Of a DNA stretch of 64,000 nt, positions 5,407 through 51,280 are shown piece by piece; positions within the stretch are counted from its first letter, which is position 1; every line of letters starts with the position of its first letter. The position numbers and the translations under genes were made by a program. Origin of the DNA: Octopus vulgaris (lineage: Eukaryota); the NCBI GenBank assembly GCA_951406725.2, contig OX597818.1:5332001-5396000 (forward strand). Reading direction: 5' to 3'. The notes beneath the pieces are model-generated. The model did no database searches and was not told the origin of the DNA. It saw only the letters and a program-made list of their open reading frames with translations.

Positions 5407-7383
5407 TTATAATTTAATCAGTATTGAGTTTTGATAAGGAAGATGAGTTTTACAATATTTCAGACGATATACCATGTGCTGGCATTTACCATGACAAGTC
5501 TCTGGAGACCGGTGCTCGCATTGTTGATTGATGGAGCAATCTTTATTAAAGGAGCATTGTTTATTTGTAAAACATTCTTTATCCATGGAGCATTCTTTAT
5601 TTACACAGCATTCTTTATCCATGGGGCATTCTTTGTTTACACAGCATTCTTTACCCATGGGGCATTCTTTGTTTACACAGCATTCTTTACCCATGGGGCA
5701 TTCTTTATTTACACAGCATTCTTTATCCATGGAGCATTCTTTATTTGCACAGCATTCTTTATCCATGGAGCATTCCTTATTTACACAGCATTCTTTATCC
5801 ATGGCGCATTCTTTATTTATACAAAATTCTTTATCTATGGTGCATTCTTTATTTACACAACATTCTTTATCCAAGGGGCATATTCTATTGATTGAACACT
5901 CTTTATTCTCGGGGCATTCTTTACTGACAAACGATGGACCCTTCTGCGCTTTCTGCGGAAACTGCTGTTGTTTAGCGCGTTTACTTTGCCCATTTATTTC
6001 AGGGACAACATTTTTTATGTTCTGTTCTCGTTCTTGCTTTTTCGTTTGCTTGGTAGATGTCTTCGGCTTGGGAAGTTGTTTCTCTATTTGTTTCACTTTA
6101 TATTCACGCTTGAGTAATCGCCCACCTTGCATCTTCTTTTTGTTTGATGTTACATTATTTTGTATATGATTGTTTGTCGTACGTTTTTGCTTCAGGTGTT
6201 TAGTTAGTTGTGGAGATTCATTTACTTGCCTTTTTTTATGACTGACATTCTCGGACTGTTGCTGAAGTTCTTGTTTCTTGGGTTTCTGTTGCTGCCCATT
6301 TTTCTTGTCGCTTTTCGTATTGCTTTTCTCCTGTCGAAGTTCGTCTGACTTTTGTTTCCGAATATTCGATGCTTGTGGTATATATTGCTCTTTTTCTTTT
6401 AATTTGCCCTCAGGTTTATTTTCCCGTCGTTGCTGCTCTTCAATCCCCTGTTTCTGTTCAGATATTTGTGTCTTAACTGGGCTTTTATCTTTATTCTTCA
6501 ATACAGACTTTTGTGTTTGTTGCACTGGCGTCTCCTCCCGCTTCTGATTTTGGTATGTATTTTCACTATATTTTTCGGGCTTTTTAGGGCGCTCATATGC
6601 ATAGTATTTATTATTTTCATTTCCAAATTGATTTTCGTCATAGTAGCTTGGATAGCAGTGTGGATATCGTTTATAATATTGCATATAGTAGTCACGATTA
6701 TGATCACAATAATAATGATGATAGTGGTGGTGATGATGTTCATGTTGGTGGTGGAATGGGCATGTTGTTTCACATTCCTGCAGATTATCACTTGTCTGAG
6801 AAAATGTCTCTGAGTCATCATATTGCTCACTACCATATGGATGCTGAAAACAACAATAACGACAACGATGATCCAGACAATTATAATGATTATATTCATG
6901 GCGAGATTTATTTTCGAGACATTCTTGTTTCTGAACATTAATATGCTTCTGAATATCTTTTTCTTGGTTTTCGTCTTCCCGCTGACATTGTTTTTCGGGA
7001 TAGGAAACATCGTCTTCTAATTCATCAGTGTAATATTCAGAAGCGGAACTAACGCTATTCTGAACGGATCGCTGCTTCCCAATCTGATTGCATCGATTTA
7101 TATTCTGAAGTGTATTGTAATCAAATTGCTTGTTCTGTAATTGTGACTGGTGATGACACTGATAACCATGGCATTTACGGCGATATCCCTCCTGAAGATA
7201 CAATCTAAGTATATATTCTTTATCATCTTCAACACATTCTAGTATATAATCGTCTGGACAGGAATTGTAATCACTGGTTATCATAAAGCTGTGGTAATTG
7301 CAGTGGCGATGGCCCCCTGTTAATAGGGTTTCCTGCAGATGGCAATTTCGGGGACAATAGACATTTCTTCTGGCTATATCTCT
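5407..7383 (-). CDS. Large terminal coding exon of an uncharacterised His/Cys/Tyr-rich, Lys/Gln-rich protein with C-terminal Cys hexapeptide repeats
   Basis: Open for 658 codons in AT-rich DNA and carries no TE motifs. A phase-0 acceptor (tattgtcattttttcag|AGAGAT) lies at 7383, the stop TAA at 5407-5409, and minus-strand AATAAA signals downstream (about 5332, 5385, 5205). Confidence 0.75.
5512..5925 (-). repeat. Coding tandem repeat with 18-bp and 36-bp periods, 23 hexapeptides [N/D/G]KEC[C/S/P][V/M]
   Basis: Visible directly as gcattctttatttacaca / gcattctttatccatgg(a/g) units; translation runs [12 protein letters not shown] ... [12 protein letters not shown] ... NQQCEH. Confidence 0.95.
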
Positions 7384-7436
7384 CTGAAAAAATGACAATA
7401 GATATACAAACAATACGCATGCATGATTTTACAATG

Positions 7437-7508
<72 letters not shown>

Positions 7509-7551
7509 TGCATGTATGTATGTATGTATGTATGTATATATATATACATAC

Positions 7552-7586
<35 letters not shown>

Positions 7587-8830
7587 CAGGGGTTGGACGA
7601 GATAATGGAAACACCTTAAACTTTCAAACGAATTTATTATAATATGTGGTAGAACCGCCTTTGGCAGTAATTACAGCTTGAATTCTACGAGGTATGGACT
7701 CATAAAAAAGTTTGAATTGTTTCCAAAAGGACTTTTTGTCCATTCTCCAGCTAAAACAGTTTGCAGTTCTTGTAGTGATGATGGTGGAGGATATCAAATC
7801 CTTACTTATTTTCCTAAAATGCAACATAGATGTTCAATAATATTGAGATCTGTGAACAGTGGTGGCCAGATAAGATGTTCAACTTCTCTAGAATGTTCCT
7901 CGTGTCATTCAGTAACAACTTTAGCCGTGAGAAATGGTGCATTACCACACTGAAAGACTGCGCGTTCCCCCGGAAACACTTCCGAAACCATAGGATGAAT
8001 TTGATCAGATAAAATGCATAAATAATCTTGACTATAAATTCTGCCGTGAAGTGCAACCATTGCGCAGGCGGATTTCCAAGATATGCCCCCCCCCCCACAC
8101 AGACCATCACAGATCCTACCCCATGTTTAACTGTTGGAAGAAGCCAGTCTGGGTCAAATGCTTCTTTTGGCTGTCTTCACACGTATCCTCAGCCGGTGAT
8201 CGGAAACAAAGTAAAGAGTGACTTCTCCGAGAAAATAACATTCTTCCACTGCTCTAGGGACCAATTCTGTAGGTTTTTACTCCACTCTAAATGCTTTGCA
8301 ATGTTTGTTTCTGAAATTAATGGTTTTCTGATTGCAGCCCTCTCGTGAAATTCAGCTTTGTGCCTCTCCCAGCGAACATTTTTGTGGAAACTGGGTTCCC
8401 GAGGTAGTCATTAAGCTCTAAAGTCATTTTCGGAGCTGTAATTTTGTGATCCTTTCCAACAATTCGCGTGCCAGCCCGACGTTTCTTGTCTGAAAGTTTT
8501 GGTTTTCTTCCCGAGTTTTGTTTCGACGATGAGGTTTTTCCCTCTTTCTCAAAGGCTGTCAATACTTTCAAGACAGTACTTCTTCATACAGCAAACATTT
8601 CAGCTGTTTTCGTTACGCTAGCGTCTGTCATACGATCGCCAACAATTTGAGCTCTTTCAAAGTCCGATAGATCTGTCATTTTAGCGAATTTTAATTACCC
8701 TTTTCTGATAATATCTGAAAATAACCAGCAATTTTAGCAAAACATATTAAGCAACACAAATAGTAAATAAAAAAAAACAAAAATAAACAAGCTTTTGATG
8801 GTTTTATAAATATTTCAAGTTTATGATGCT
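7587..8830 (-). mobile_element. Tc1-family DNA transposon with pseudogenised transposase (about 7624-8679)
   Basis: TA followed by a TIR-like cagggttggacgagataatggaaacacc at 7587. Transposase fragments: [58 protein letters not shown]. Stops and frameshifts are present and the second TIR is not visible. Confidence 0.9.
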
Positions 8831-8836
8831 ACGATG

Positions 8837-8900
<64 letters not shown>

Positions 8901-8913
8901 ATATCTATCTATC

Positions 8914-8944
<31 letters not shown>

Positions 8945-8969
8945 CTACCTATCTATCTATCTATCTCTC

Positions 8970-9038
<69 letters not shown>

Positions 9039-9331
9039 TACGGTAGATAAACACAGTTAAATTTCTCACGTATATTTACTGGTCGAAAGGGATAAACAGC
9101 CCCCAGTTTAAAACATTCATTAATGTTACAATGTTATATCGCCTGAAGAAATGAATCCATGAAGATGATCTACCCGATGCCCACGGGCGCTATGGAATAC
9201 ACTGTAATCATCCTGAAAATACGGACTGTGGTCTTAAAAAGCATGAGTGCTATGGAAACGCAAGTTGGTGGTCCAGCATGGCCGCAGTCAAAATGATTGA
9301 AACAAGTAAAAGCAGAATAAAAGACCAAAAC

Positions 9332-9374
<43 letters not shown>

Positions 9375-9409
9375 GTGTGTGTGTTTGTGTGTGTGTATGA
9401 GTCTGTGTT

Positions 9410-9451
<42 letters not shown>

Positions 9452-9452
<1 letters not shown>

Positions 9453-10934
9453 TAGCATGATGACCCGTCGGTGCCGGGTCATAGTGCTAGTGCTTGTTTA
9501 TATATGTGTATGTATATGTGTACATATTACATGTACATCTATATATATATATACATCTACACATAAAATACAAAGTTATATCTTGATATAGCTAGTGATA
9601 ACAATACTCAAAATATATAACAGACTGGAATTCTAGGCCCGTCTCTTGTAATTTCGATCAATTTTATCGTGTTCTTCCTCTTGTATAGAAGTGTGGCTAC
9701 AATCCAGCCTACTTCTACTTCTGGGGGAAAATTTTTAAAATTTTTATCCGGGACGTTCTACGTCCCAGATCTAAAGGTAAAAGTAAAATATTTCCACTTT
9801 GCAAGGTTCAAGTCGAGTACTCCCTTGCACGCTCCGTTGACTCATCTTTCATAGTCGCACCAAGACACTTTTCGTTGGTGCTTTCATCCAGGTGTTCAAA
9901 TCTTTTTTTCCTCTACATTGTATACTTTATAGACAATAGTCTTTTCTTTTATTTAACTTTTTATTTCGTTTGGCTGTGTTATCCTAGATTCACCGTCTTT
10001 GTCGGTGATCAATAGGAAATAGCTTTGTATTTCTTCCATTTTAATTTTAATGAGTTCTCGCCTGCCGACGGCGGCAGCAAAGTTCATTTTTGGACTTTCT
10101 TCTATGGAAGGCATTCTAACAAAAATGCTTCCGTGTAAACGGTGAAAATATTGTCAATTTCCCCAAACAGGGAAACAATTCAATTTTTAAACAATAACCA
10201 AAGCTCCTTCACCCAAAGGGGGAGGACTACAGTTTACAATTATTTAACAAATGCAACACAACAACGTTTCCCTTACGAGGAACCAATAAAACGTGATAAC
10301 AATAGTTAAACAGCAATAATAATAACAACAAACCTTACGGTGAATCAAAAAGCAGTACGCAGTTGAAGCTATAGTCCTTTATGTATAAGAAATAAACCAA
10401 CAGCAGTAGAAGCGGCTGTTCGAGAAAACAGACATTACATACAGCCAAACTTCATATAGATAGTTAATGCTAGCTAATTAGCAGATAAACTAATGTAAAA
10501 GCCGTAGTAAATAGTATGTGCACAGCTCCATCTGGACTATTCCATTTCTGCACACTAATTTTATTTTTAATTTATTCTCATTCATGTGAAACCACTTATT
10601 CAAGTTCAAGTCATTGATGCAATTTTATACCAATTGCTATTTTTACTTTTCTTATGTTACGATTATATTATACTTTAGTTTGATTTTAATTATTACTTAC
10701 TACATATAATTCAATTGTTATTATTATCTCTAAATTTTATTGTTAAAGTGAAAGTATCTGACATAAAATAGGGAAATGTTTTTGTTTCATTTTTAACACG
10801 TAATACTGTAATTCATTTGCCCGCCCATGAAACTACATGGACCCTAAGTAAGGCATGTGTAAAATTTGAAGGAAATTGGTTGGGTAGTTCTCAAGTTTTA
10901 GGGAAACACACAGACAGACAGACACACATTCTCA

Positions 10935-10945
<11 letters not shown>
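9452..10945 (-). mobile_element. Probable non-autonomous Helitron-like element
   Basis: The minus-strand 5' end reads tatataaaactgagaatgtgtgtctgtctgtctg, typical of Lep1-like Helitrons. The other end has the hairpin atgacccg/cgggtcat bracketed by CTAG (9452-9491). The same architecture occurs at 34190-35400. Confidence 0.5.
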
Positions 10946-10969
<24 letters not shown>

Positions 10970-10983
10970 TATTATATAGAAGG

Positions 10984-11034
10984 AGCTTCTACAGGACTAG
11001 AACTGTTTCATTCAAGAGAAATCTTCAGGAAGCT
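10984..11034 (-). ncRNA. Type I hammerhead ribozyme motif (mirror copy in the palindrome)
   Basis: Exact reverse-complement copy of 11031-11081, a consequence of the palindrome. Confidence 0.75.
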
Positions 11035-11081
11035 TCCTGAAGATTTCTCTTGAATGAAACAGTTCTAGTCCTGTAGAAGCT
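11031..11081 (+). ncRNA. Type I hammerhead ribozyme motif
   Basis: Stem I agcttc(11031-36)/gaagct(11076-81); core CTGAAGA 11037-43; stem II t-ttc-tctt-gaa-t; GAAA 11056-59; stem III ACAG/CTGT with loop ttctagtc; GUA cleavage triplet ending at 11075. Confidence 0.8.
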
Positions 11082-11167
11082 CCTTCTATATAATAAATTA
11101 ATTTTACTCTGCTATGTATTGAGTACCTTATTTACTGTGGTTAACCCCGAATCAACCCGGGACCTAC

Positions 11168-11237
<70 letters not shown>

Positions 11238-11442
11238 TAGCTTAATAATCCTAACGCCGGGCTAAACTACTAGGGATTCTATAAGTTTCTAAGTTTAATA
11301 CAAATTATATTTCGAAATTAAATTAATGTCTGTATAAATGTTTTCGAAGATAAGTGAAAAAGATTTTATGAAAGATTTGAAATATCAGTAATTCTTTTTC
11401 TCTTCAGTGAATTCAACACACACATATATACGCACACACACA

Positions 11443-11496
<54 letters not shown>

Positions 11497-11529
11497 AACA
11501 CACGTGTGTCCATTTATGCATGTATGTAC

Positions 11530-11578
<49 letters not shown>

Positions 11579-11904
11579 TTAAACGCACAAATTATATATT
11601 CTTTCTTCGCTCGTTTATTATTGTTCTTATTTTATCTTATGTCCATCGTCTGTAAATCTTCTTCAGTGATCCTTTCCGTCCACGAGTATTCTGCTCCTCC
11701 TAAAAAATGGACTAGGCGGGGCAGGAGGATACACGTGGATAGAAAGTGTCACAGATGTGAGACAAAAGATTTTGAGGCATTGGATATAAGCTAAAATAGC
11801 AGTAATAAACGTGTGAAGAACGAATATATGATGCGTGTTTCTTTGGCAAAAAACGACCATCCTGAATAATAATAACAATAATAATAGTGATAATAATAAT
11901 AGTG

Positions 11905-11982
<78 letters not shown>

Positions 11983-11985
<3 letters not shown>

Positions 11986-12310
11986 GCATGAGCACAAACC
12001 GCAGAGAGTGGCGGCGTCGGAGATTAACAAAATCCTGTGGGTCTTCGCTAGCCAAACAGTTCAGGTGCAAGAGTATAACAGACCGGAAAAAGTGCACCAC
12101 ATGTGCTATACAGTTGATGTAGCATGCCCCTTTCGCTCGGGAATAGTCAAGAAGGAAGGTAAAACAATACATAAATATAACCCTCTTAAGTACGAAATAG
12201 ACCGGGTATGAAAAATGAAGGTGAAGATAGTGCCAATTATTGTTAGGTCCTTGGGGTCAGTATCAGAAGGCATGAAGAGGAACATAATGGAAGTTGGAAT
12301 AGAGTGTTCA
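11983..12310 (+). mobile_element. 5'-truncated RLE LINE fragment following an (AAT)n tract
   Basis: WHEHKPQRV...KILW...NRPE...VDVACPF...KYNPLKYEI...KIVPIIV are RLE domain motifs; the fragment starts directly after (AAT)n at about 11866-11982. Confidence 0.75.
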
Positions 12311-12602
12311 TTATGAATATAAATGAATTTATAATATGATATATTTTGTTAAAGTAAACCATAATAATATTTTATTATGTTTATATTATTATTTCATTTA
12401 TATATTCATACTGATATCAATATGTATATTCATAAAATATATATTGAATATATTGAGTAATGAAATAAGTATAATCAAATGTTTAAATGTCGTATCATAA
12501 ATTTCCAATGTTTGAATTAATATATTTTTATCCTGCGAACGGTTTATTTGACCCTGCATTTCAGTTGGTATGGACAGTTTCCTACTTCAAGATAAATTAT
12601 TT

Positions 12603-12830
12603 AAAGGCGGTAAGCTGGCAGAAACGCTAGTACACCGGGCGAAATGCTTAGCCGTATTTAGTCTGTTTTTTACGTTCTTGAGTTCAAATTTTGCCGAGGG
12701 CAACTTTGCCTTTCATCCTTTCGGGGTCGATAAATTAAGTACCAGTTGTGTACTGGGGTCGATCTTATCGACACGCTCCCTCCAAAAAAGCAAAACAAAT
12801 CGGGCCTTTTGCATAGAGTAGAAAAGAAGA
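12603..12830 (+). mobile_element. tRNA-derived SINE, family 1
   Basis: ggcggtaagctggcagaaacgctag (A-box-like), gagttcaaattt (B-box-like) and the core tttgcctttcatcctttcggggtcgataaattaagtaccag. Confidence 0.85.
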
Positions 12831-14089
12831 TATATCCTCTATACATATACATTCTCTTAGCCAGCATGAGTAAGGGAGCTTAATGAAGATGCAACGCAGA
12901 TTTTTTCATCTCCTTTATCTGATTTATATACTTGTATTTATATATGTATCAATACATATATATACACACACAACTTAAGCACGCTGCCAACATACCCATG
13001 GTGTAGAAAGTTTTCAAACCTATACTCGGATTTGTCTTTGATCTAACGCGCTATATTTTGAAGTCTTTCTTTAAGGGAGAAGAATGACTAAGTAATTGTC
13101 TTCTGATATGTGGACAAACCATAAATAAATAAGTTTATTTTCTGATTTATTGCATCTCTTTATATGCATGTAAATCACACTGGATTGTTCTTACTTCACA
13201 GAATGTTGTTACTGAGTAACCTATACAAATAAATTGTTGTACAGGGAGTTGGATTGTGTTGGATCTATCGCACTTTCTCTTTATTACATTATCGTTTCAC
13301 CTGTCAGAAGCAAATCAGAATTATACCGGAAAAGAAGCGATGTGAAATCTAAACTTATTCCTTTACTTCTGAAGCACATCAAATGTGAAGGTGACTTAGC
13401 TGAAACTTTTCATGTAATAAATACTTCAATGTTCACATCACATGTCGATTAAACTTGTTTTATAGTACCCATATACTATAGAAATATGTTACACACGAGC
13501 TGAAACATACAAAATTACCTGCTTAAACGTATTGTGTCCTTTAAATTCACCTGCAGGAACTGTAGAAATTCATTAGGAGTGCATCACTAGCAAAGATGAT
13601 GTTCATTTATCATATTGATATTTTTTGTGTCCTACAAAATCTAGGAGGTTATTTCTGTAATTGTAATAGATGTTGCATTCACCCTGCTGGTTTATCGCAA
13701 CATTACCCAGAATGAAAATCAGCTGGGGTTTCTGCTTATTTAGTCACGGACTCCTAATTTTGATACGCTGTACTCAGATACTAGAGAATCACATGCACAT
13801 ATATATAAGTATGTATGTATGTATGTATGTATGTATGTATGTATGTCATTTTCAGTTTATTTCAACATTTTTTTGCTAATAGAGAAAGAACCGGTTTCTA
13901 ACCTAGATCCAAGGCTCCATTGGAATTTCAACATCAACAACAGGGTATTTTTGTTTGTTTGTATGCATGTATGTATCTATGTACGTATGCATGCATGCAT
14001 GCATGTACATAGGCATGTGGAGATTTGTGTGTGTTTCATGTATGTAATCTCATGCATATATTTGCATATCTAAACATGCTCATAAATTT

Positions 14090-14308
14090 AAATTGTAAAC
14101 TGGAATTTTTATCAGAATTTTACAGTTCCAGTGATGGTTAGAATCTGTAGTCTTCGAATTAGATTTCTCCTTTCTGGTTTTAAGAAGCATAATTTCTCGA
14201 GATTGGTATTTAGGCAGTGTTTTCCGTATCACAGGGCCCCAATAATTACAGGTATAAACCTGAGCTTGTAATCTGGATTGAGTAACTGTAGATTTCTCAA
14301 TGTATGTT

Positions 14309-14310
<2 letters not shown>
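14090..14310 (-). mobile_element. 3' fragment of a further RLE LINE family
   Basis: [23 protein letters not shown] followed by LIRRLQILTITGTVK matches the IPVxIGALG C-terminal motif. Confidence 0.65.
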
Positions 14311-14380
<70 letters not shown>

Positions 14381-14979
14381 TATATATATACATACATACA
14401 TACATACATACGTACATACATACATACATACATACATGCTTACACACACACACACACACACATATATATGCAGGTAAACTATAAGTGTATATAGACATGC
14501 TTATACATATATATGCGACTCTTCTGGCGAAATAGACTATTACAGGTTTGTAGAAATAGAAGCACAACAAACTCCCATCTTCAGGCTTAATATACAGCCA
14601 CATATTCTACACCCTGTATTGAATACTTCTTCGTTCTTCGTACGAAACAAAGTAACGTACATATAAGTATATATATATGTGTGTGTGCGTGTGCGTGTGT
14701 GTGTGGGTTTGTGTGTGTCTGTGTTTGTATGTGTGTATATGTGTGTATTAGCGCATGTGTATGTATTAATATATACCTATGCATATTTATTAGCAACACT
14801 GCTCCGAGTTTCTGTAGATAGTGAATTTTAGGATGTTAATACAAAATCATAGCTTCTTATACATATCAAACCATAAGGCTATACGTTAACGAGCAAAATG
14901 ACCTGTGAATGAGATGATTTTAATAAGGAGGGAATGAAGTGAGGCAATATATATAATATAAAGTCTCTCTTAAACTTAC

Positions 14980-15054
14980 CACGTCTTCGAAACGTTGATT
15001 AGGATGAACATTACCGGACGCCAACGAATACTCTGGTTCTTTGATATAAGACAT
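14980..15054 (-). CDS. Candidate first coding exon of the 5407-7383 gene (MSYIKEPEYSLASGNVHPNQRFEDV)
   Basis: Acceptor ttcatcttcatcag|ATG at 15054, 25 open codons, donor GTG|gtaagt at 14980/14979. The phase-0 end matches the phase-0 acceptor at 7383. Confidence 0.5.
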
Positions 15055-16424: not shown

Positions 16425-18546
16425 TAGGGCGGAGCGAAAAGGTATTTTTTACATAGATTTTCGAAATATGTTTTTGAGAATATATTTTTTATTGTGAAAT
16501 CCTTTAAAACAACTGTGTTGAAATCTGAAGTTCGTAAATTTACAGCCTTAAGCTCGGCAGCCCACTTAAAATTTTGAATAATACGCGAAAAATCAATTTG
16601 TAGCATGTTTGCCGTTACTCATTTTGTTTTCACATTCATTGTTACGAATTAATTAACCTTTGCAAAATTTGTAAGAAACAAAACTGTTAAAATCACAAGC
16701 TCTAGAATTTATACCTTCAAGCTCCGCAATGCACTTAATATTTCGAAATTATGTGAAATAAATAGACTTTCCGACTTTGTTTTCTTTACTATTTTTAATA
16801 TATAAGGTCAACGAATATATGTGTTACGTGAGGTCTAGATTACACACACATTAGAATAAAATTACGTGTAAACCAATTTTTGATTCTTGACACGTTTCGG
16901 TGATAAAAATAATTAACATTTCCATCTCATTTTATTCGAAATAAATCCCTGTCACTAAATAATACGAATCGCCGCAGTGCATTCCTTTCCGTTCCAGTAG
17001 TAAAGTCAATTAATGTTTTTCGTAGAATTTGCATCTGAATCTCCATTACTGAAACATTCAAAGATTTGTTGTTTTGTAAATTCCTAAAACCACATATTTC
17101 TAATTGTTTGTTTTGTTCAAAATAGCTAAAACTAAACGATTCTAATTGATTATTGCTGTATTATCTTTCAATTTGAAGTCCTTTTTTGTCTAGCACACAG
17201 GAAATTTTTCTCTTATATATGTGCATGTGATTCTCTAGTATCTGAGTACAGCGTATCAAAATTTTTCTCTTGGTTCAATTCGACTCCTAATGAAACCGTC
17301 TCGACTGTTATCACTGGATCGTTTCCGCCTTACTATTGTTCTGTCTATAACGAAACAGCATTCACCAGATCTACTTGCTGTTAAGTCGCTGATGACCGAA
17401 CTTGTAAGAGCAGCAGCACAGTCTGACACACCGGTGCGGTCACAGGCTAGTTCTGGGAATTTCATTCGTTTTATTGGAGTATTTGGACTTACGTTTTGCT
17501 GACGTCTTTTCGTTACAGGGAAAATGGAATTGGAAAATCTTCATCTGCTGATCCAAATTCACTGCTTGAGGAAAGGGCTATCAATTCAGAATCTCTTCCT
17601 GATGTAGAAGGGTGAATGTGACCTGGCCGATTCTTTCTACTCAACCTCTGAACGTTCTGTTTTGATACTGCTTGATCTGTTCCGCGAATGATCAATTTTC
17701 AATTTGTCCGTTGATTCTGTAAAGAAATTTTGTTCTCTCTGTGGTTCTCCATTACAACTGCAGTTTGTCAAGGAGTTGCACTTGCAGTAGGAAATGTCAA
17801 TTAAATCTTTTGTTGCATTGTTTTTAAACGCATTAAACTTGGTTTGAAACGATGACACATTTTCTTTTTCATTTTTCACAGATTTTTGTAATGTTTGGTA
17901 CTTTAGATAAAAGTCTAAGATTTCCGGTTTAACTGACTCAATCATGGTACAAGGGATAGATGCCCTTTGCCAACGAATTACCTTTTCTGTTGCAACCTTG
18001 ACGATTTGTTTGATTAAAGGATCTTTTTTAACTACATTGTTTTTGTTTTCTTGTCCAAATAAATTTGAGAACGTCCTTGTAAGTTGGCAAAACTAGTTCG
18101 TTAAGGTCACATGGAGTATCAAATATTGGGTATTCAGTGTCATGACGCATTATTAGCTTATGAGTCATCACTAAATGCAAAGAACACTAAATTTAACGCG
18201 ATCATTAATTTTAATAGAATGTCTTAAAGTCAAGGTACAAAGATGAAAACTTCATACACGTACGACGTACGTTCACACACAACGACCGTTGCAGCGGCAC
18301 TGGAGACAAGTTCACACTCCCGTTCTATTTATATTCAATGCGTAACCTCATGATATTAGTCAATTGTATAGAAACTTGGTATGCAACCTCTTAAGGATAC
18401 CATATTTACAGTTTTGCATTCTGCTATGTAAAAATATATATTCGTTATGACTTATAATCCATGAAATCCAAAATTTGACCAAAACTAGCGATTTTCAATT
18501 ACGTTGAAAAAATATTTAATTTTTATACACCTTTCTTTTAACCCTA
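16425..18546 (-). mobile_element. Decayed DNA transposon, probably hAT (hATm-like)
   Basis: TAGGG...CCCTA termini. Minus-strand fragments LPTYKDVL, WQRASIP, LIDISYCKCxxxxxCSC and ACDRTGVSDCAAAL...VIDRTIVRRKR. Family assignment is from recalled motifs; no TSD found. Confidence 0.55.
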
Positions 18547-28046: not shown

Positions 28047-28833
28047 CCAAGCACTATATGAGAGAGATTTTCTTTAAGTATTAGAAATGGTTTTTAAAAA
28101 AGTTTTTTAGCTGCTATTTCTAATGAGTTCAGTATGCGGCAAAGTAATTTATTTTACTAAGCCCTTTTATATATTGTAATAATTTGAATTCGCCTTAAAT
28201 GGTCCCTTTGCATACTGAACACTTGGTGAAATTAATTAATAATTAATTAATTTTACCCTCAATTGTTGAAATTATAATTAATCTCCCTCTAATTAATGCT
28301 TCGGATTTTACCGAAATAAGCAGAGTGTTTGTTGATTTTAACCCACGCTGGTGGAAAGGGGAGAGCAGAAATTCTTCGCTTGCATGTTTGAGTTTGTTGG
28401 CACTGTTAGTTACGAGCAGATCTTCGAAAGCGATGAGAGGCCGAAAAAGTATGCTCTCACTTTCAGTGTTTTCAAATCCAAACCAAGGAGTTTCTGAGCT
28501 GATGATAGAAGTGTCGTGATGACTAATCTTGAAACGTACGTTCTCAAATAACCTTTGCATTTGATTTTTTGATGTCTTTACCCCCAAACTTTCGTGGGTT
28601 GAGTTGACCAAGCACTATATGAGAGAGATTTTCTTTAAGTATTAGAAATGGTTTTTAAAAAAGTTTTTTAGCTGCTATTTCTAATGAGTTCAGTATGCGG
28701 CAAAGTAATTTATTTTACTAAGCCCTTTTATATATTGTAATAATTTGAATTCGCCTTAAATGGTCCCTTTGCATACTGAACACTTGGTGAAATTAATTAA
28801 TAATTAATTAATTTTACCCTCAATTGTTGAAAT
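28044..28833 (+). mobile_element. (TA)n-embedded partial tandem: 561-bp unit with identical 229-bp terminal direct repeats (pLTR/retrozyme-like)
   Basis: 28044-28272 is repeated at 28605-28833 (offset 561). (TA)n lies on both sides and the unique part contains a hammerhead motif. Confidence 0.8.
28495..28546 (+). ncRNA. Type I hammerhead ribozyme motif
   Basis: Stem I tgag/ctca; CTGATGA 28499-28505; imperfect stem II (aga..gtc/gac..tct); GAAA 28531-34; palindromic stem III ACGTACGT; GUU triplet ending at 28542. Confidence 0.65.
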
Positions 28834-40604: not shown

Positions 40605-43600
40605 TCTATGTTTGACTTTTGCTTTATGTCTGTACAAGTTGGCTCCAAGTCTCACCCAGAGACCTCAAGAGACAACAGGTTGGAGGTTCTGTGCATTATA
40701 TTTTTTGTTTTTGTTTTTTGTTTTTTTTGGTGTTGTACTAGTGAATGTCTAATACATAAAAATTAAAAAATAAAAATAAAAATATAAAAAAAAGTTTGTT
40801 TTAAACCTATGTTTTACATAGAGAGTATTTTGCGTAGGATATGAGCAGTTCCCATGAGCACTATCTTTTGAATTTCTGCCATTTTGGGGTTTCCTGGTAT
40901 CTGAGTTAGGTAGCAATCAGTCCCTTTCGCTATCATTCTCAGGGCACCTATGACAACAGGTATTGTTTTAGTCTTCAGGTTCCACATTTTGCTGATTTCT
41001 ATTTCAAGATCTTTATATTTGCTCAGTTTTTGGTAGGTCTTGACAGATACGTTTATATCGATTGGGACAGTCATATCAATGAGGAGGCATGTTCTTTGTC
41101 TGAAGTCTTTCAATATGATGTCTGGCCTATTTGCATCTATCTTCCTGTCAGTTTGAATGGTGAAGTTCCAGAGGAGTGAGATGGGGTCATTTTCAAGCAC
41201 TGGAGGCGGATTGTTTTCAAACCAGTTTTTTTCATGGGGCAAATCCAGGTTTTTGCAAATTACCCAGTGAATATATTGTGCAGCTCTATCATGCCTACTG
41301 AGGTACTCTGTAGGCGCTAGAGGACTGCATTTGGAGACAACATGATCAATGGTTTCATTTTGTTGTCGGCATACACGACATGTTGGGCTACTGCCGTTCT
41401 TTAATATGTTGGCCTGGTAGTTTCTTGTTGGTAGGCATTGATCTTGAGCTGCTATGATAAACCCCTCTGTTTCAGATTTTAAGCCAGAGGCCATTAGCCA
41501 TTGATGGGTCAGGGCTTTGTCGATATCTGCATTATTCGCTCTCTTTGGGTATTTGCCATAGAGAGGTTTTTCTTGCCATTTATTATTCAGAATATCTAAG
41601 GTCGCAGTTTTGGCACGGGTTTTCATGCGCCTAGCTTTTTCTGTGCTTGTTTCTTGTATGTCTATCTCTAATTCCGAAATTGGTTGTATTCGGAATTCAC
41701 TTAGATATTCCTTTGCCTGTTTTGTGACTGAGTATGGTGCTTTCTTGTTTTCATGTTTTGAGACAAGTCTTAACATCCAGTCCTCAGAGTTTTTCAGGTA
41801 GGTGTCTAGGCCAATTGTAGCAATCTTCATTGTTATTGCCAGTTGCAAAAGACCACGGCCTCCCTCTTTTCTTGGCAGATAGAGTCGTTCTGTATCTGCC
41901 TTAGGGTGGTGCATTCTATGCATTGTCAGCAGTTTCCTTATTTTTCTGTCGAGCTGACATATTTCAGTAATTGACCAGTTAACAATATTGAAACTGTAAG
42001 TCACGACTGGTATGGCTAATGCATTGATCGCTTCGATTCTGTTTCTTGCATTCAGCTCTGTCTTGAGTATTTCTCTCACTCTTCGATAGCATTCTCTCCT
42101 GATCCTTTCCGTCATCTCTGAATGCCTTATTCCGTTCCCTTCAATTACCCCTAGGTACTTGTAGCTCCCCGCTGGGTCTAGTTCGTTTATGACATTCTGC
42201 TGGTGAAGGTTAACGTTAGATGTTTCTTTCATTTTCCCTTTGATAAAGGTAGCTTTTGCACAGCTGCTGCCTAGACATGTGATTTTTTTAGTACAGCTTG
42301 CGTAGCTACAGTAAAATGGAAGAATCTGATGTCGTCACTGAATTGTTTGACTATCGCTAGTAAGCCCTTGAGTTGTTGGTAATTTTTTGCAAAAAGCTTT
42401 AAATCATCCATGTAAATGAGATGATTTATATTTTTATCAAACATTTTATACCCGTACTGCGCGTCATTGAGCAGCTTTGAGAGAGGTATTAAGGATAAAC
42501 AAAAGAGGAGTGGTGACAGTGAGTCACTCTGGAAAATGCCACACGAAATTTTTACATCACCAGCATTTAGGGATTCATTGTCACTGTTCAGAGTTAGTGT
42601 GGTTCTCCATGATCTCATACTTACATACAAGAAGTTTCGCAGAGTAGGTGCTATCTTATACATTTCCAGGCATTTCTTAATCCAGCTATGTGGTAGGCTA
42701 TCAAAAGCCTTTTTATAGTCTATCCAGGCTATTGATAAGTTTTTGTGTCGTTTGTGACAATCTTCTAAGATCATCTTATTGATGAGTAGTTGGTCTTTAC
42801 AGCCGTAGGATCCACGTTTACATCCTTTCTGTTCATTAGGGAATATGCTGCTGTCTGTTAAAAAACTATAGGTATATTCCGTCAGGACAGATGTTAGTGT
42901 TTTGTACATAGTTGTTAAGCAGGTTATGGGTCTATAGTTTTTTGGTTCATTTGTTTCTTCACTTTTTGGAAGCAGGAATGTTAACCCATTAACTAGCCAA
43001 GAAGGCATCCTACTAGGGTGTTGCAAAACATCATTGTACAGTTCTGTTAGCAGTTCATGGCTCTCTGGGAAGGCATTCAGCCAGAAGTTAGGAATTTTAT
43101 CCTTTCTTGGAGACTTCCATTTGCTTGACCTCCTGAGAGCAGATCTTATATCTTCTACCTTGACACCCTCCCACTTTTGCTCTTCTAAGGGGTCCAGTTC
43201 TGTAGATATTCTGTCAATCCAGGGGGTCTTTTCGTTGTGTGTTTTTTCTTCTGCCCAGATTTTATTCCAAAATCCCTGCAATTCTTTTGATGGTACAGAC
43301 CTTGCAGTAAACGCTGTTTTTCCTATCTTCCTGTAAAAATTCTTGGTTTTATTTTTGAACATGTTGTTGTCCTTGAAAAATCTAACACGCTTTTCATACC
43401 TCGCTATGCGGGCAGCTTTGGCAGATACCTTTTGTTTGATGGTTTCTATAGTGGCATCAATATCAAGTATAGTTTTCATATTGTATTTTTTCAGTAATTT
43501 TGGGGTTTTTGTAGGTTTGGTAGTCTTGTGAGCCTTAAGGTTTTTCAAATATTCAATGTCAGATATAAAGATTTTAATTTGTTGTTGCAGACGCTCTTGC

Positions 43601-44660
43601 CAAGAAGGCTTTTTGTGGGAATGTTGCCGTTTTCTAATCTTTATACCACATAGGATCGTTGAGATTTTCGCGGATGCATAGTATAGGTGGTTGAGGTTTG
43701 TGATATCAACATCATTAGCTGAAATTATATCCTTACATGCAAGCCGGATTTTACCAATTATTTTCATGTTTTGGTTAGAGTTGCGGATTTTAGGAAGTGT
43801 ATCACGTTCATCCATGCTGGTTTCTTTAATTTTCAGCCATTCAATCATGATTTGATTTTCTAGCTCATGTAGTTCTGTTGGGTCAATATTTGTGTGACTT
43901 TCTTTATCTATTTGATGCTCATCTGTCTTAGTGTTTATGATTGGTTCAGGGAGTATTTCACTTTGCCTATCACTTATACTAAATCTTTCAATCCTCACAT
44001 CGTTTTTATCAGCCCTGGGCTGGTCTATAATTATTTCCTCTGTATTATCTTCTCTAGCTGCAGCTTCGTTCATTTTATCCGATATTGCTTGTCTAACTTG
44101 ATCAATCTCTACTTCAGTCAGTAATTTGTTTTTTATAATGTTTCTTCTGACGTTGGCAAGTTTGTTACTGTCTATGTAGGGTCTTACTTCAGGGTGTTTC
44201 TGTCTCCAGTTTAAGTATGCTTGTACAGTACTAGATTTATCCGTGGGGAAAATAATGGCATGGTAGAAGGCCTCAAGAACTTCTTTATTATCTTCCCTAG
44301 ACCATTTCTCCTTCTTTTCTTTTGATTATTTGGTGATGAGCATGGATGGCCATCTGTTGGAATATTCCGGTTGTGGGGTACGTCCAGCTCCTATGTGTTG
44401 GGAAGATTTGATCCAGTAGCTGATTTTTCAATCAGAATTTGGTTCAATTTTCGGGTACGTGGTCTTTTGTAATCCGCGCAACGACCAATGCGATTTATTG
44501 TTTGATTTGTTGACCTTGAAGCATGACGAGCATCCATTCTTATATTAGGAGATGGATCTGTCAGTTTAGGGTTCTCTACATGTAAGCATTGCTCATAGCG
44601 CAGCTTCTTAAGACTAGCAGATCTATATTCGTCTGTATTTTTTTTGTTGATAGTTTTATC
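40605..44660 (-). mobile_element. Near full-length R4/Dong-like non-LTR retrotransposon (single ORF: Myb-like N-terminus, RT, CCHC finger, RLE)
   Basis: KWSREDNKEVLEAFY (about 44310), NYRPITCL, WIDYKKAFDS, GIFQSDSLSP, YMDDLK, CRVC..ETIDHVVSKC, RHD, RPDII, IDMTVP, KLSKYKDL. The ORF is broken at 42263-42324 and near 44320; (TAA)n tail at 40584-40604. Confidence 0.95.
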
Positions 44661-51244: not shown

Positions 51245-51280
51245 CGTTGCGTCTTGCAACCTTGGTTGCAAGACGCAACG
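51245..51280. repeat. Perfect hairpin with 17-bp arms and a 2-nt spacer
   Basis: cgttgcgtcttgcaacc-tt-ggttgcaagacgcaacg at the start of a (TA)n-flanked insert of about 200 bp. Confidence 0.95.

Follow-up and report, generated by a model that had tools for sequence, protein, structure and literature searches.

A perfect palindrome of two hammerhead-motif repeat ends, probably of Penelope-like origin, in an intron of Octopus vulgaris

An intron in the 64-kb window analysed here (the whole 64,000-nt stretch of Octopus vulgaris DNA) holds an insert with a perfect palindrome at its centre. We read this insert as two dead, ORF-less, head-to-head copies of the hammerhead-motif end of a repeat that is young and abundant and probably forms the terminal repeat of a Penelope-like element (PLE); the copies were likely joined as two cDNAs. 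Taken as a whole, this reading seems to us rather probable. That the insert is a terminal module mobilised by a PLE is highly probable from the sequence features set out below. Head-to-head structures have already been described for PLEs, and as a single locus the insert is nothing unusual among the by-products of this class of retroelements.

The palindrome and its repeat family

The arms of the palindrome, 10969-11032 and 11033-11096, are 64 nt each and 100% complementary with a spacer of 0, giving 128 bp in total. A11031, with which hammerhead helix I opens, is the starting point of both arms, which overlap in a self-complementary AGCT (11031-11034); the centre of the palindrome, 11032|11033, lies inside the 5' strand of helix I. 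Together with the shared AGCT, the left arm forms an inverted, 5'-truncated copy of the terminal module (10969-11034, minus strand), and a direct copy runs from the first base of helix I to a short 3' end (11031-11098, plus strand). On the right the insert outruns the palindrome, to about 11165-11167. This optional 3' extension, or tail, of about 67 nt (11099-11167, plus strand) is found on the right side only and ends in a predicted stem-loop with an AC-rich loop (11139-11164). (TA)n tracts that would be part of the target microsatellite flank the insert at 10939-10966 and, with one interruption, at 11168-11231; in a check for a target-site duplication, both flanks read as (TA)n. An earlier note on this DNA had described a spacerless 128-bp palindrome with exact 64-bp arms, folded back within the 5' strand of stem I and inserted between (TA)n tracts, and the sequence bears out this description. 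The second longest perfect, non-simple inverted repeat in the window (n = 5 with arms of at least 12 bp and a spacer of at most 10 bases) lies at 51245-51280 and has arms of merely 17 bp, separated by 2 bases. The window thus holds no other comparable palindrome, which argues against an origin by template switching at a replication fork.

To place the insert in a family, we looked for 13 sampled words of 10966-11165 in 24 listed public runs. Between 77 and 100% of these words were held by 20 of the 24 runs (9 studies), some with contig sets of just 5 million letters. Four of the 20 are possible source samples, and 16 runs from 8 studies remain when these are set aside; the runs X21-X24 had a word share of 0.00 and were given no evidential weight. 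None of the 20 is listed as an RNA run; X10 may be one. The region 11017-11165 (149 bases) was then aligned to the contigs of four of the 20, runs X1, X7, X9 and X10. This yielded 1035 contigs in X1 (909 at least 95% alike) and 1721 in X7 (1542 at least 95% alike), from two studies. One X9 contig equals 11031-11165 with 0 differences and has 122 other letters upstream, and one X10 contig (contig 11) equals 11042-11165, also with 0 differences. Hundreds of near-identical contigs, together with the exact X9 contig, indicate that 11031-11165 is a young, high-copy repeat, of which the window copy is the majority form; it has the majority base at both variable sites of the family (11048 and 11064). 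No second copy of the repeat was found within the 64-kb window, and an exact 25-base pattern was absent from viral, metagenome and prokaryote collections. A search of the literature, as distinct from repeat databases such as Repbase and Dfam, turned up no account of Octopus repeats that bear a hammerhead. Passages of PMC13282606 report recently active Penelope-like families in O. vulgaris (31 families, 336 insertions), and the octopus repeat may already be catalogued, for instance in the O. vulgaris repeat library of that study.

The family has two kinds of 3' end. Among the loose ends listed, contigs pass into (TA)n behind 11096, 11098 and 11102 in X1 (2, 14 and 4 contigs, respectively) and behind 11098 in X7 (12 contigs), while other contigs run on to 11165. 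The left arm of the palindrome stops near 11096-98, at the short end, and the right copy near 11165, at the tailed end; the outer end of the left arm matches the short 3' end of the family plus one extra TAA before (TA)n begins. Sequence comparison thus shows that each outer end of the insert falls on a 3' end of the family where (TA)n follows. The loose ends that lead into (TA)n at 11096-11102 could themselves be left arms of other palindromes. A few contigs share the tail but differ just upstream, before 11103-11105 (7 + 1 in X7 and 2 in X1). In the X7 contigs, the upstream sequence is unlike the 3' side of helix I, a hint that there may be a sister subfamily whose hammerhead stem is different or missing.

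On the 5' side, non-palindromic contigs leave the reference before A11031 in four of the four aligned runs, a clustering that is partly built in by the palindromic reference. The upstream consensus is mixed (agreement of 0.63 in X1 and 0.67 in X7), which shows more than one upstream sequence, and one X10 contig has (TA)-rich sequence joined directly before 11031. A helix I that was originally longer was considered and dropped, as the upstream letters of the non-palindromic contigs do not extend it. One X9 contig has a TATAAA motif 29 bases before 11031, of which the outermost letters are different in the X7 consensus. This motif hints at a possible transcription start site that would fix the 11031 end. 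The upstream T and the AG at 11031-32 also read like a splice acceptor. As passages of PMC4209133 describe an intron of Drosophila virilis Penelope that ends at helix I, the acceptor-like AG suggests by analogy a splice boundary that fixes the 11031 end, which we note as a lead only. No ATG-started frame stays open to the tail end at 11165. The pLTR plus tail holds the start of the ORF in Pen2a_Av (passages of PMC3846280) and PAc (PMC11167929).

Next, we focused on whether the junction between the two copies recurs. In the bins that only the palindrome can fill (11017-21 and 11022-26), the summed depth was 3702 and 5245 in X1, 4342 and 5321 in X7, and 0 in X9 and X10, with no differences listed in these bins for X1 and X7. 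The ratio between the two bins was 0.82 in X7 and 0.71 in X1, compared with 0.80 expected for an unbroken junction contig that starts at 11018. The words tell a similar story. X1 and X2 hold all 13, and X9, which contains all of 11031-11165, holds 11 of 13, the missing ones being among 16 words of the junction or left end (13 of the 16 from the junction). A large DNA run of another study, X8, has 11 of 13 words as X9 does, and it may lack the junction. Four small runs (36-51 million letters) hold all 13 words, but they are possible source samples and not independent. When junction depth is divided by the median over the 8 pieces listed for each run, the result is about 110-160, although depth does not equal copy number. 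The 20 contig pieces listed, of 2826, do not show the junction cleanly, and the sole piece over 11017 is a poor gapped alignment; part of the depth at 11017 could be forced alignment of upstream sequence. The junction appears in two independent studies, and from these depths we roughly infer that it is probably there in something like a hundred copies.

That the palindrome is genuine and found in other samples is well supported by these sequence comparisons. The evidence consists of contigs, which cannot span a perfect palindrome, and this is what speaks for a fold-back artefact of assembly or library preparation. Such an artefact is nevertheless scarcely credible, given the junction-side depth in two independent studies, the full word share in X1 and X2, and arms that run into different flanks, each at a natural end of the family.

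The hammerhead motif and its fate in the host gene

A type I hammerhead motif lies at 11031-11081 on the plus strand. It consists of a helix I of 6 bp (11031-36/11076-81), CUGAAGA at 11037-43, GAAA at 11056-59, a helix III of 4 bp whose loop III contains a CUAG palindrome, and GUA at 11073-75, with a predicted cleavage site 3' of A11075. All conserved parts of the core are present (C3-A9, G12-A14, A15.1-U16.1, the NUH triplet, helices I and III). A strict descriptor that combined the core with a helix I of at least 6 bp and a helix III of at least 4 bp matched only the two motifs of the palindrome in the window. Of 200 shuffled versions of the 64-kb window it matched 1, and of 20,000 shuffles made from 11025-11096 it matched 0. 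Looser matches (helix I of 4, helix III of 2) occur in the window at 28499 and 57258.

Helix II is weak. It has 3 bp (UUC/GAA) and is closed by U11044.U11055 at positions 10.1-11.1, where hammerheads usually have a G-C pair. This U.U is the majority state of the family (X9 and X10 show no difference), and we found nothing relevant in the literature on mismatches at 10.1-11.1. Passages of PMC4209133 describe G10.1-C11.1 as highly conserved in PLE hammerheads; the octopus motif lacks this pair, which counts against its assignment to PLEs. In isolation, the 51-mer gains no stability over shuffled sequences (z 0.17; 97 of 200 shuffles as stable). Rfam models gave no hammerhead at the gathering score. 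The locus and its surroundings had 45 matches at E<=10, none of them a hammerhead, and 11031-11098 alone gave 0 matches. The earlier note had seen a hammerhead ribozyme on each strand, had called that of the right arm a complete type I hammerhead and had proposed an Rfam search. The features that it listed are there, but the word complete is too strong for a helix II of 3 bp with a U.U, and the Rfam search returned no hammerhead match at any threshold tried. MicroRNA models match the locus only below the gathering score, as they would any long hairpin, and these matches were set aside as unspecific.

Only two substitutions are listed in the family at a frequency of at least 2%, T11048A in loop II and T11064A in loop III, and none falls in the stems. 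T11064A lengthens the palindrome of loop III, a feature that passages of PMC4209133 present as typical of PLE hammerheads that act as dimers. Substitutions confined to the loops fit constraint on the core and stems and a dimer-type PLE helix III, as judged from sequence; they do not amount to covariation.

Outside the octopus family, a relaxed descriptor matched 106 loci (49 + 57). We regard these as unrelated, as none of the 106 has blastn similarity to 11031-11165. Most of them (82 of 106) are one 42-base string in two variants, found in many phage contigs and with a helix II of at most 2 bp. One metagenome locus (L003:3001-3051, minus strand) has helices II and III of 5 bp; it is no relative of the octopus repeat but could be a true type I hammerhead. 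Further metagenome matches are L048:345-389 (minus strand), L006 and L040.

The insert lies in a gene of the minus strand. Its exons map to 15054-14980 and 7383-5410, with a GTAAG donor and a CAG acceptor, and the main exon agrees with a predicted protein of O. vulgaris at 658 of 658 positions. As these exons flank the palindrome, it lies inside a GT-AG intron of 7,596 nt (7384-14979, minus strand). The exons and splice sites confirm the earlier placement of the insert in an intron of a Cys-repeat gene. The ORF at 5407-7428 (minus strand) matched only Octopus proteins (2 clusters among 2416 candidates in one search), and Pfam gave no match for the protein. Its N-terminal part is rich in His, Tyr and Cys and its middle in Gln and Lys, and Cys-rich repeats of 12 residues follow towards the C terminus. 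Besides 5407-7428 and 14980-15054, the gene includes 17334-17465 (minus strand), and isoforms in databases range from 635 to 727 aa. The name "Mediator subunit 26" given in one source looks like a low-complexity mislabel. The same intron contains, at 7600-8700, a decayed fragment of Tc1/mariner type (HTH_Tnp_Tc3_2 at 8192-8407, E 5e-4, a weak match below the cut-off).

As the host gene is transcribed on the minus strand, its pre-mRNA carries the mirror motif (10984-11034, minus strand; predicted site 3' of A10990) and not the A11075 motif, a point on which the earlier note is to be corrected. The predicted probability of the exact hammerhead fold is 0.018 for the motif by itself; it falls to 0.002 when the tail is included and to about 1e-54 inside the palindrome (secondary structure only, with no tertiary contacts), whose transcript is predicted to fold into a hairpin of -107 kcal/mol. 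When successive prefixes of the pre-mRNA were folded, the hairpin grew while the mirror motif emerged. As the hairpin is predicted to form while the motif emerges and the fold probability is about 1e-54, cleavage of the host transcript is not expected. Folding thus speaks against the competition between hammerhead and hairpin that had been proposed: the antisense arm is made first, and the intronic hairpin is predicted to suppress ribozyme cleavage, with the motif locked shut rather than active. At most, the hairpin would be an ADAR substrate; 42 of the 128 palindrome bases are A on the strand of the pre-mRNA. Passages of PMC5625713 describe palindromic repeats in frog as heavily edited and octopus as rich in potential dsRNA; by analogy, palindromic inserts are plausible editing substrates.

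Identity of the insert and formation of the inversion

Several features of the insert are those of PLEs: the type I hammerhead motif, the head-to-head inverted and 5'-truncated copy, the two 3' ends with a one-sided tail, and the (TA)n target. An inverted 5'-truncated copy adjoining the terminal repeat is standard in PLEs according to passages of PMC8557442 and PMC8969392, and passages of PMC8557442 add that the inverted copy is at the 5' end, the tail at one end only and the target biased towards (TA)n. The earlier note had taken such inverted pLTR copies to be known from PLEs, as passages of PMC8557442 and PMC3846280 indeed state. Its view of the insert as a young insertion of a PLE-type terminal module gains from the high-copy, nearly invariant family with PLE-like 3' ends and tail. 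The ORF that defines EN+ PLEs encodes a telomerase-like RT and a GIY-YIG endonuclease. No such partner could be tied to the repeat, which counts against a PLE: a GIY-YIG match was absent from the 205 of 211 ORF segments of the window that were scanned (the other 6 lie at 5528-7616).

The known systems close to the insert include canonical EN+ PLEs (Penelope/Poseidon, Neptune, Nematis, Hydra; passages of PMC8557442 and its Fig. 2), which share the head-to-head inverted truncated copy, the one-end tail, the (TA)n target and a type I hammerhead in the pLTR. These usually have a tail of 30-40 bp, whereas that of the octopus insert is about 67 nt long, and the whole insert is about 200 bp and has no ORF. 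In Adineta vaga, passages of PMC3846280 describe a palindrome at the head-to-head junction of Pen2, Pen2a and Pen3a, again with an inverted copy shorter than the direct one. Those palindromes are of 18 and 38 bp, low-copy, and read as self-priming on an antisense template, whereas the octopus junction is 128 bp, perfect, centred on the first bases of helix I and apparently recurrent. PAc, a Poseidon element of Anolis carolinensis (PMC11167929), resembles the octopus repeat in its two 3' ends bounding a tail, its AC-rich outer stem-loop and its AT-rich target, and the copies of both begin elsewhere than at the cleavage site. The tail of PAc spans the interval between its two start sites of reverse transcription. 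It is part of the ORF, which begins in helix II; the octopus repeat has no such start. The main text of that paper does not discuss inverted insertions. Naiad_Ovul and Naiad_Obim (passages of PMC8557442) share the (TA)n preference, the inverted copies and the host genus Octopus. Unlike the young octopus family, Naiads are described there as old remnants in cephalopods that lack canonical hammerheads. None of 6 short words of the repeat occurred in the supplement text of PMC8557442, as far as it was available, a weak result as long runs are cut there.

The repeat could instead be a non-LTR retrozyme, a short tandem hammerhead repeat mobilised in trans by PLEs, and not the end of a protein-coding PLE. 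According to passages of PMC7761336 and of bioRxiv 10.64898/2026.07.22.740005, metazoan non-LTR retrozymes are likewise short and non-coding, with a type I hammerhead that has a helix III, and are probably PLE-mobilised. The full helix III of the motif resembles that of canonical retrozyme hammerheads, whose units measure 150-300 bp (passages of PMC7761336), and retrozymes derive from pLTRs and are often monomers (passages of the bioRxiv text); the octopus repeat, too, has no ORF start that we found. Retrozymes are defined in these passages by head-to-tail tandem units and circular RNAs, whereas the octopus locus has one unit with an inverted partial copy. There is no tandem unit at the locus and no second copy in the window, no head-to-tail joint is listed for the 149-base aligned stretch, and the copy does not start at the cleavage site. 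As the signature of two 3' ends and a tail has moreover been described for PLEs (PMC11167929; passages of PMC8557442), we consider a retrozyme unlikely. A MITE or other DNA transposon with terminal inverted repeats was rejected, as about 69 nt lie beyond the right arm and the family majority has a non-palindromic upstream sequence.

For the formation of the palindrome, we give about even chances to a route with two cDNAs. A PLE protein with RT and GIY-YIG domains would nick both strands of the (TA)n target. Reverse transcription would start at two internal sites of the RNA, at about 11165 (with tail) on one strand and at about 11098 (without tail) on the other. Both cDNAs would stop at 11031, at the edge of helix I, which is probably where the uncleaved RNA has its 5' end. 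Their AGCT-3' ends would pair, and fill-in would give a spacerless palindrome with the length of the shorter cDNA; a fixed stop point would give the same junction at many loci. PAc offers a precedent, as it cleaves and extends both strands, is predicted to be dimeric, has two internal starts in an AC-rich stem-loop and uses uncleaved RNA (PMC11167929). Extension of both strands, two start sites and a predicted dimer favour two cDNAs that meet where the template has a fixed end. A spacerless product requires pairing of AGCT with AGCT, for which the ends of two cDNAs offer the simplest way. This duplex is weak (-3.8 to -4.8 kcal/mol), and we found no published two-primer model of PLE inversion in the literature.

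The earlier note had proposed fold-back or template switching. Simple fold-back of a single cDNA does not fit best: for a cDNA ending at 11031, the six bases at the 3' end are predicted to pair with the mirror helix I (0.63-0.80 per base), and if they were extended, the arm would be 17 bases long and enclose an unpaired core. This product, a short arm with a spacer, is unlike the spacerless form; it was not seen, and no such joint is listed. Self-priming is the published reading of palindromic PLE junctions (passages of PMC3846280). In the octopus insert, a single strand, either the first cDNA or an antisense template like that suggested for Adineta Penelopes, would turn back at AGCT and be extended on itself for 64 nt before it joined the target. 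It accounts for arms that are 100% identical, and the AT-rich stop point could have joined (TA)n by microhomology. Identical arms are, by contrast, also expected in most two-template events, as the copy has the majority base at both variable sites, and the left arm ends where family contigs often meet (TA)n. Since a zero-loop turn at AGCT is sterically poor and the predicted pairing of the 3' end with the mirror helix I gives another product, we find self-priming doubtful.

Two further origins would not involve joining at each insertion. The junction may have arisen once, in a master whose palindromic unit was then amplified as a small non-autonomous element. This would suit a junction that seems multi-copy with one exact centre and the four small runs of 36-51 million letters that hold all 13 words, which as possible source samples are not independent. 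It is improbable in view of the majority form in X9 with another upstream sequence, a junction depth of about 4-8% (a rough figure) of the depth that starts near 11031, a transcript whose -107 kcal/mol hairpin would be a poor template for reverse transcription, and an inverted repeat that, unlike that of a MITE, is not terminal on the right. Alternatively, a plain copy may have become palindromic after insertion by a template switch at AGCT in a replication fork. Microhomology-mediated inverted duplications are a general outcome of repair. Such a switch is very improbable here, as the left arm ends at a family 3' end with no unique host flank, the same junction appears abundant in two studies and the window holds no comparable palindrome elsewhere.

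If the two-cDNA route is right, roughly a hundred independent, identical, spacerless junctions in octopus would each record two cDNAs, made from both target strands and joined through a self-complementary 4-mer at the fixed 5' end of the RNA, the edge of helix I. We put this forward tentatively, as a possibility that we would not yet bet on. It would explain the head-to-head inversions and one-sided tails of PLEs and make them countable in one genome; passages of PMC8557442 name the formation of tandem and inverted PLE insertions as an open task, and passages of PMC7761336 call the role of PLE hammerheads a mystery. It would also mean that introns tolerate ribozyme inserts that silence themselves, and that perfect 64-bp ADAR substrates are added to a heavily edited genome. 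With its single fixed junction point and two loop positions that vary, this young family lends itself to a computational test of two templates against fold-back.

Neighbouring repeats in the window

The (TA)n that received the insert may belong to an older repeat. On the left, GACA repeats at 10740-10938 (minus strand) run into TTTT(TA)n, and on the right a short GC hairpin followed by CTAG lies at 11232-11273 (plus strand); the window has no other copy. The left flank resembles what we take to be the 5' end, and the right flank the 3' end, of a non-autonomous repeat of Helitron type. A small GC hairpin at 9450-9495, with CTAG on both sides and adjoining (TA)n, is presumably another possible end of this type.

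The window also contains a nearly intact non-LTR retrotransposon at 40814-44325 (minus strand), presumably Dong/R4-like, with two long overlapping ORFs (684 and 506 aa), an RVT_1 match (E 3e-21) and a weak zf-RVT match. Many further pieces of such elements occur at about 22.4-26.3, 30.9-34.1, 37.8-40.6, 45.7-46.1 and 58.9-64 kb, several of them beside (TAA)n tracts. Matching short matches at 28141-28259 and 28702-28820, 561 bases apart, suggest a local direct duplication.
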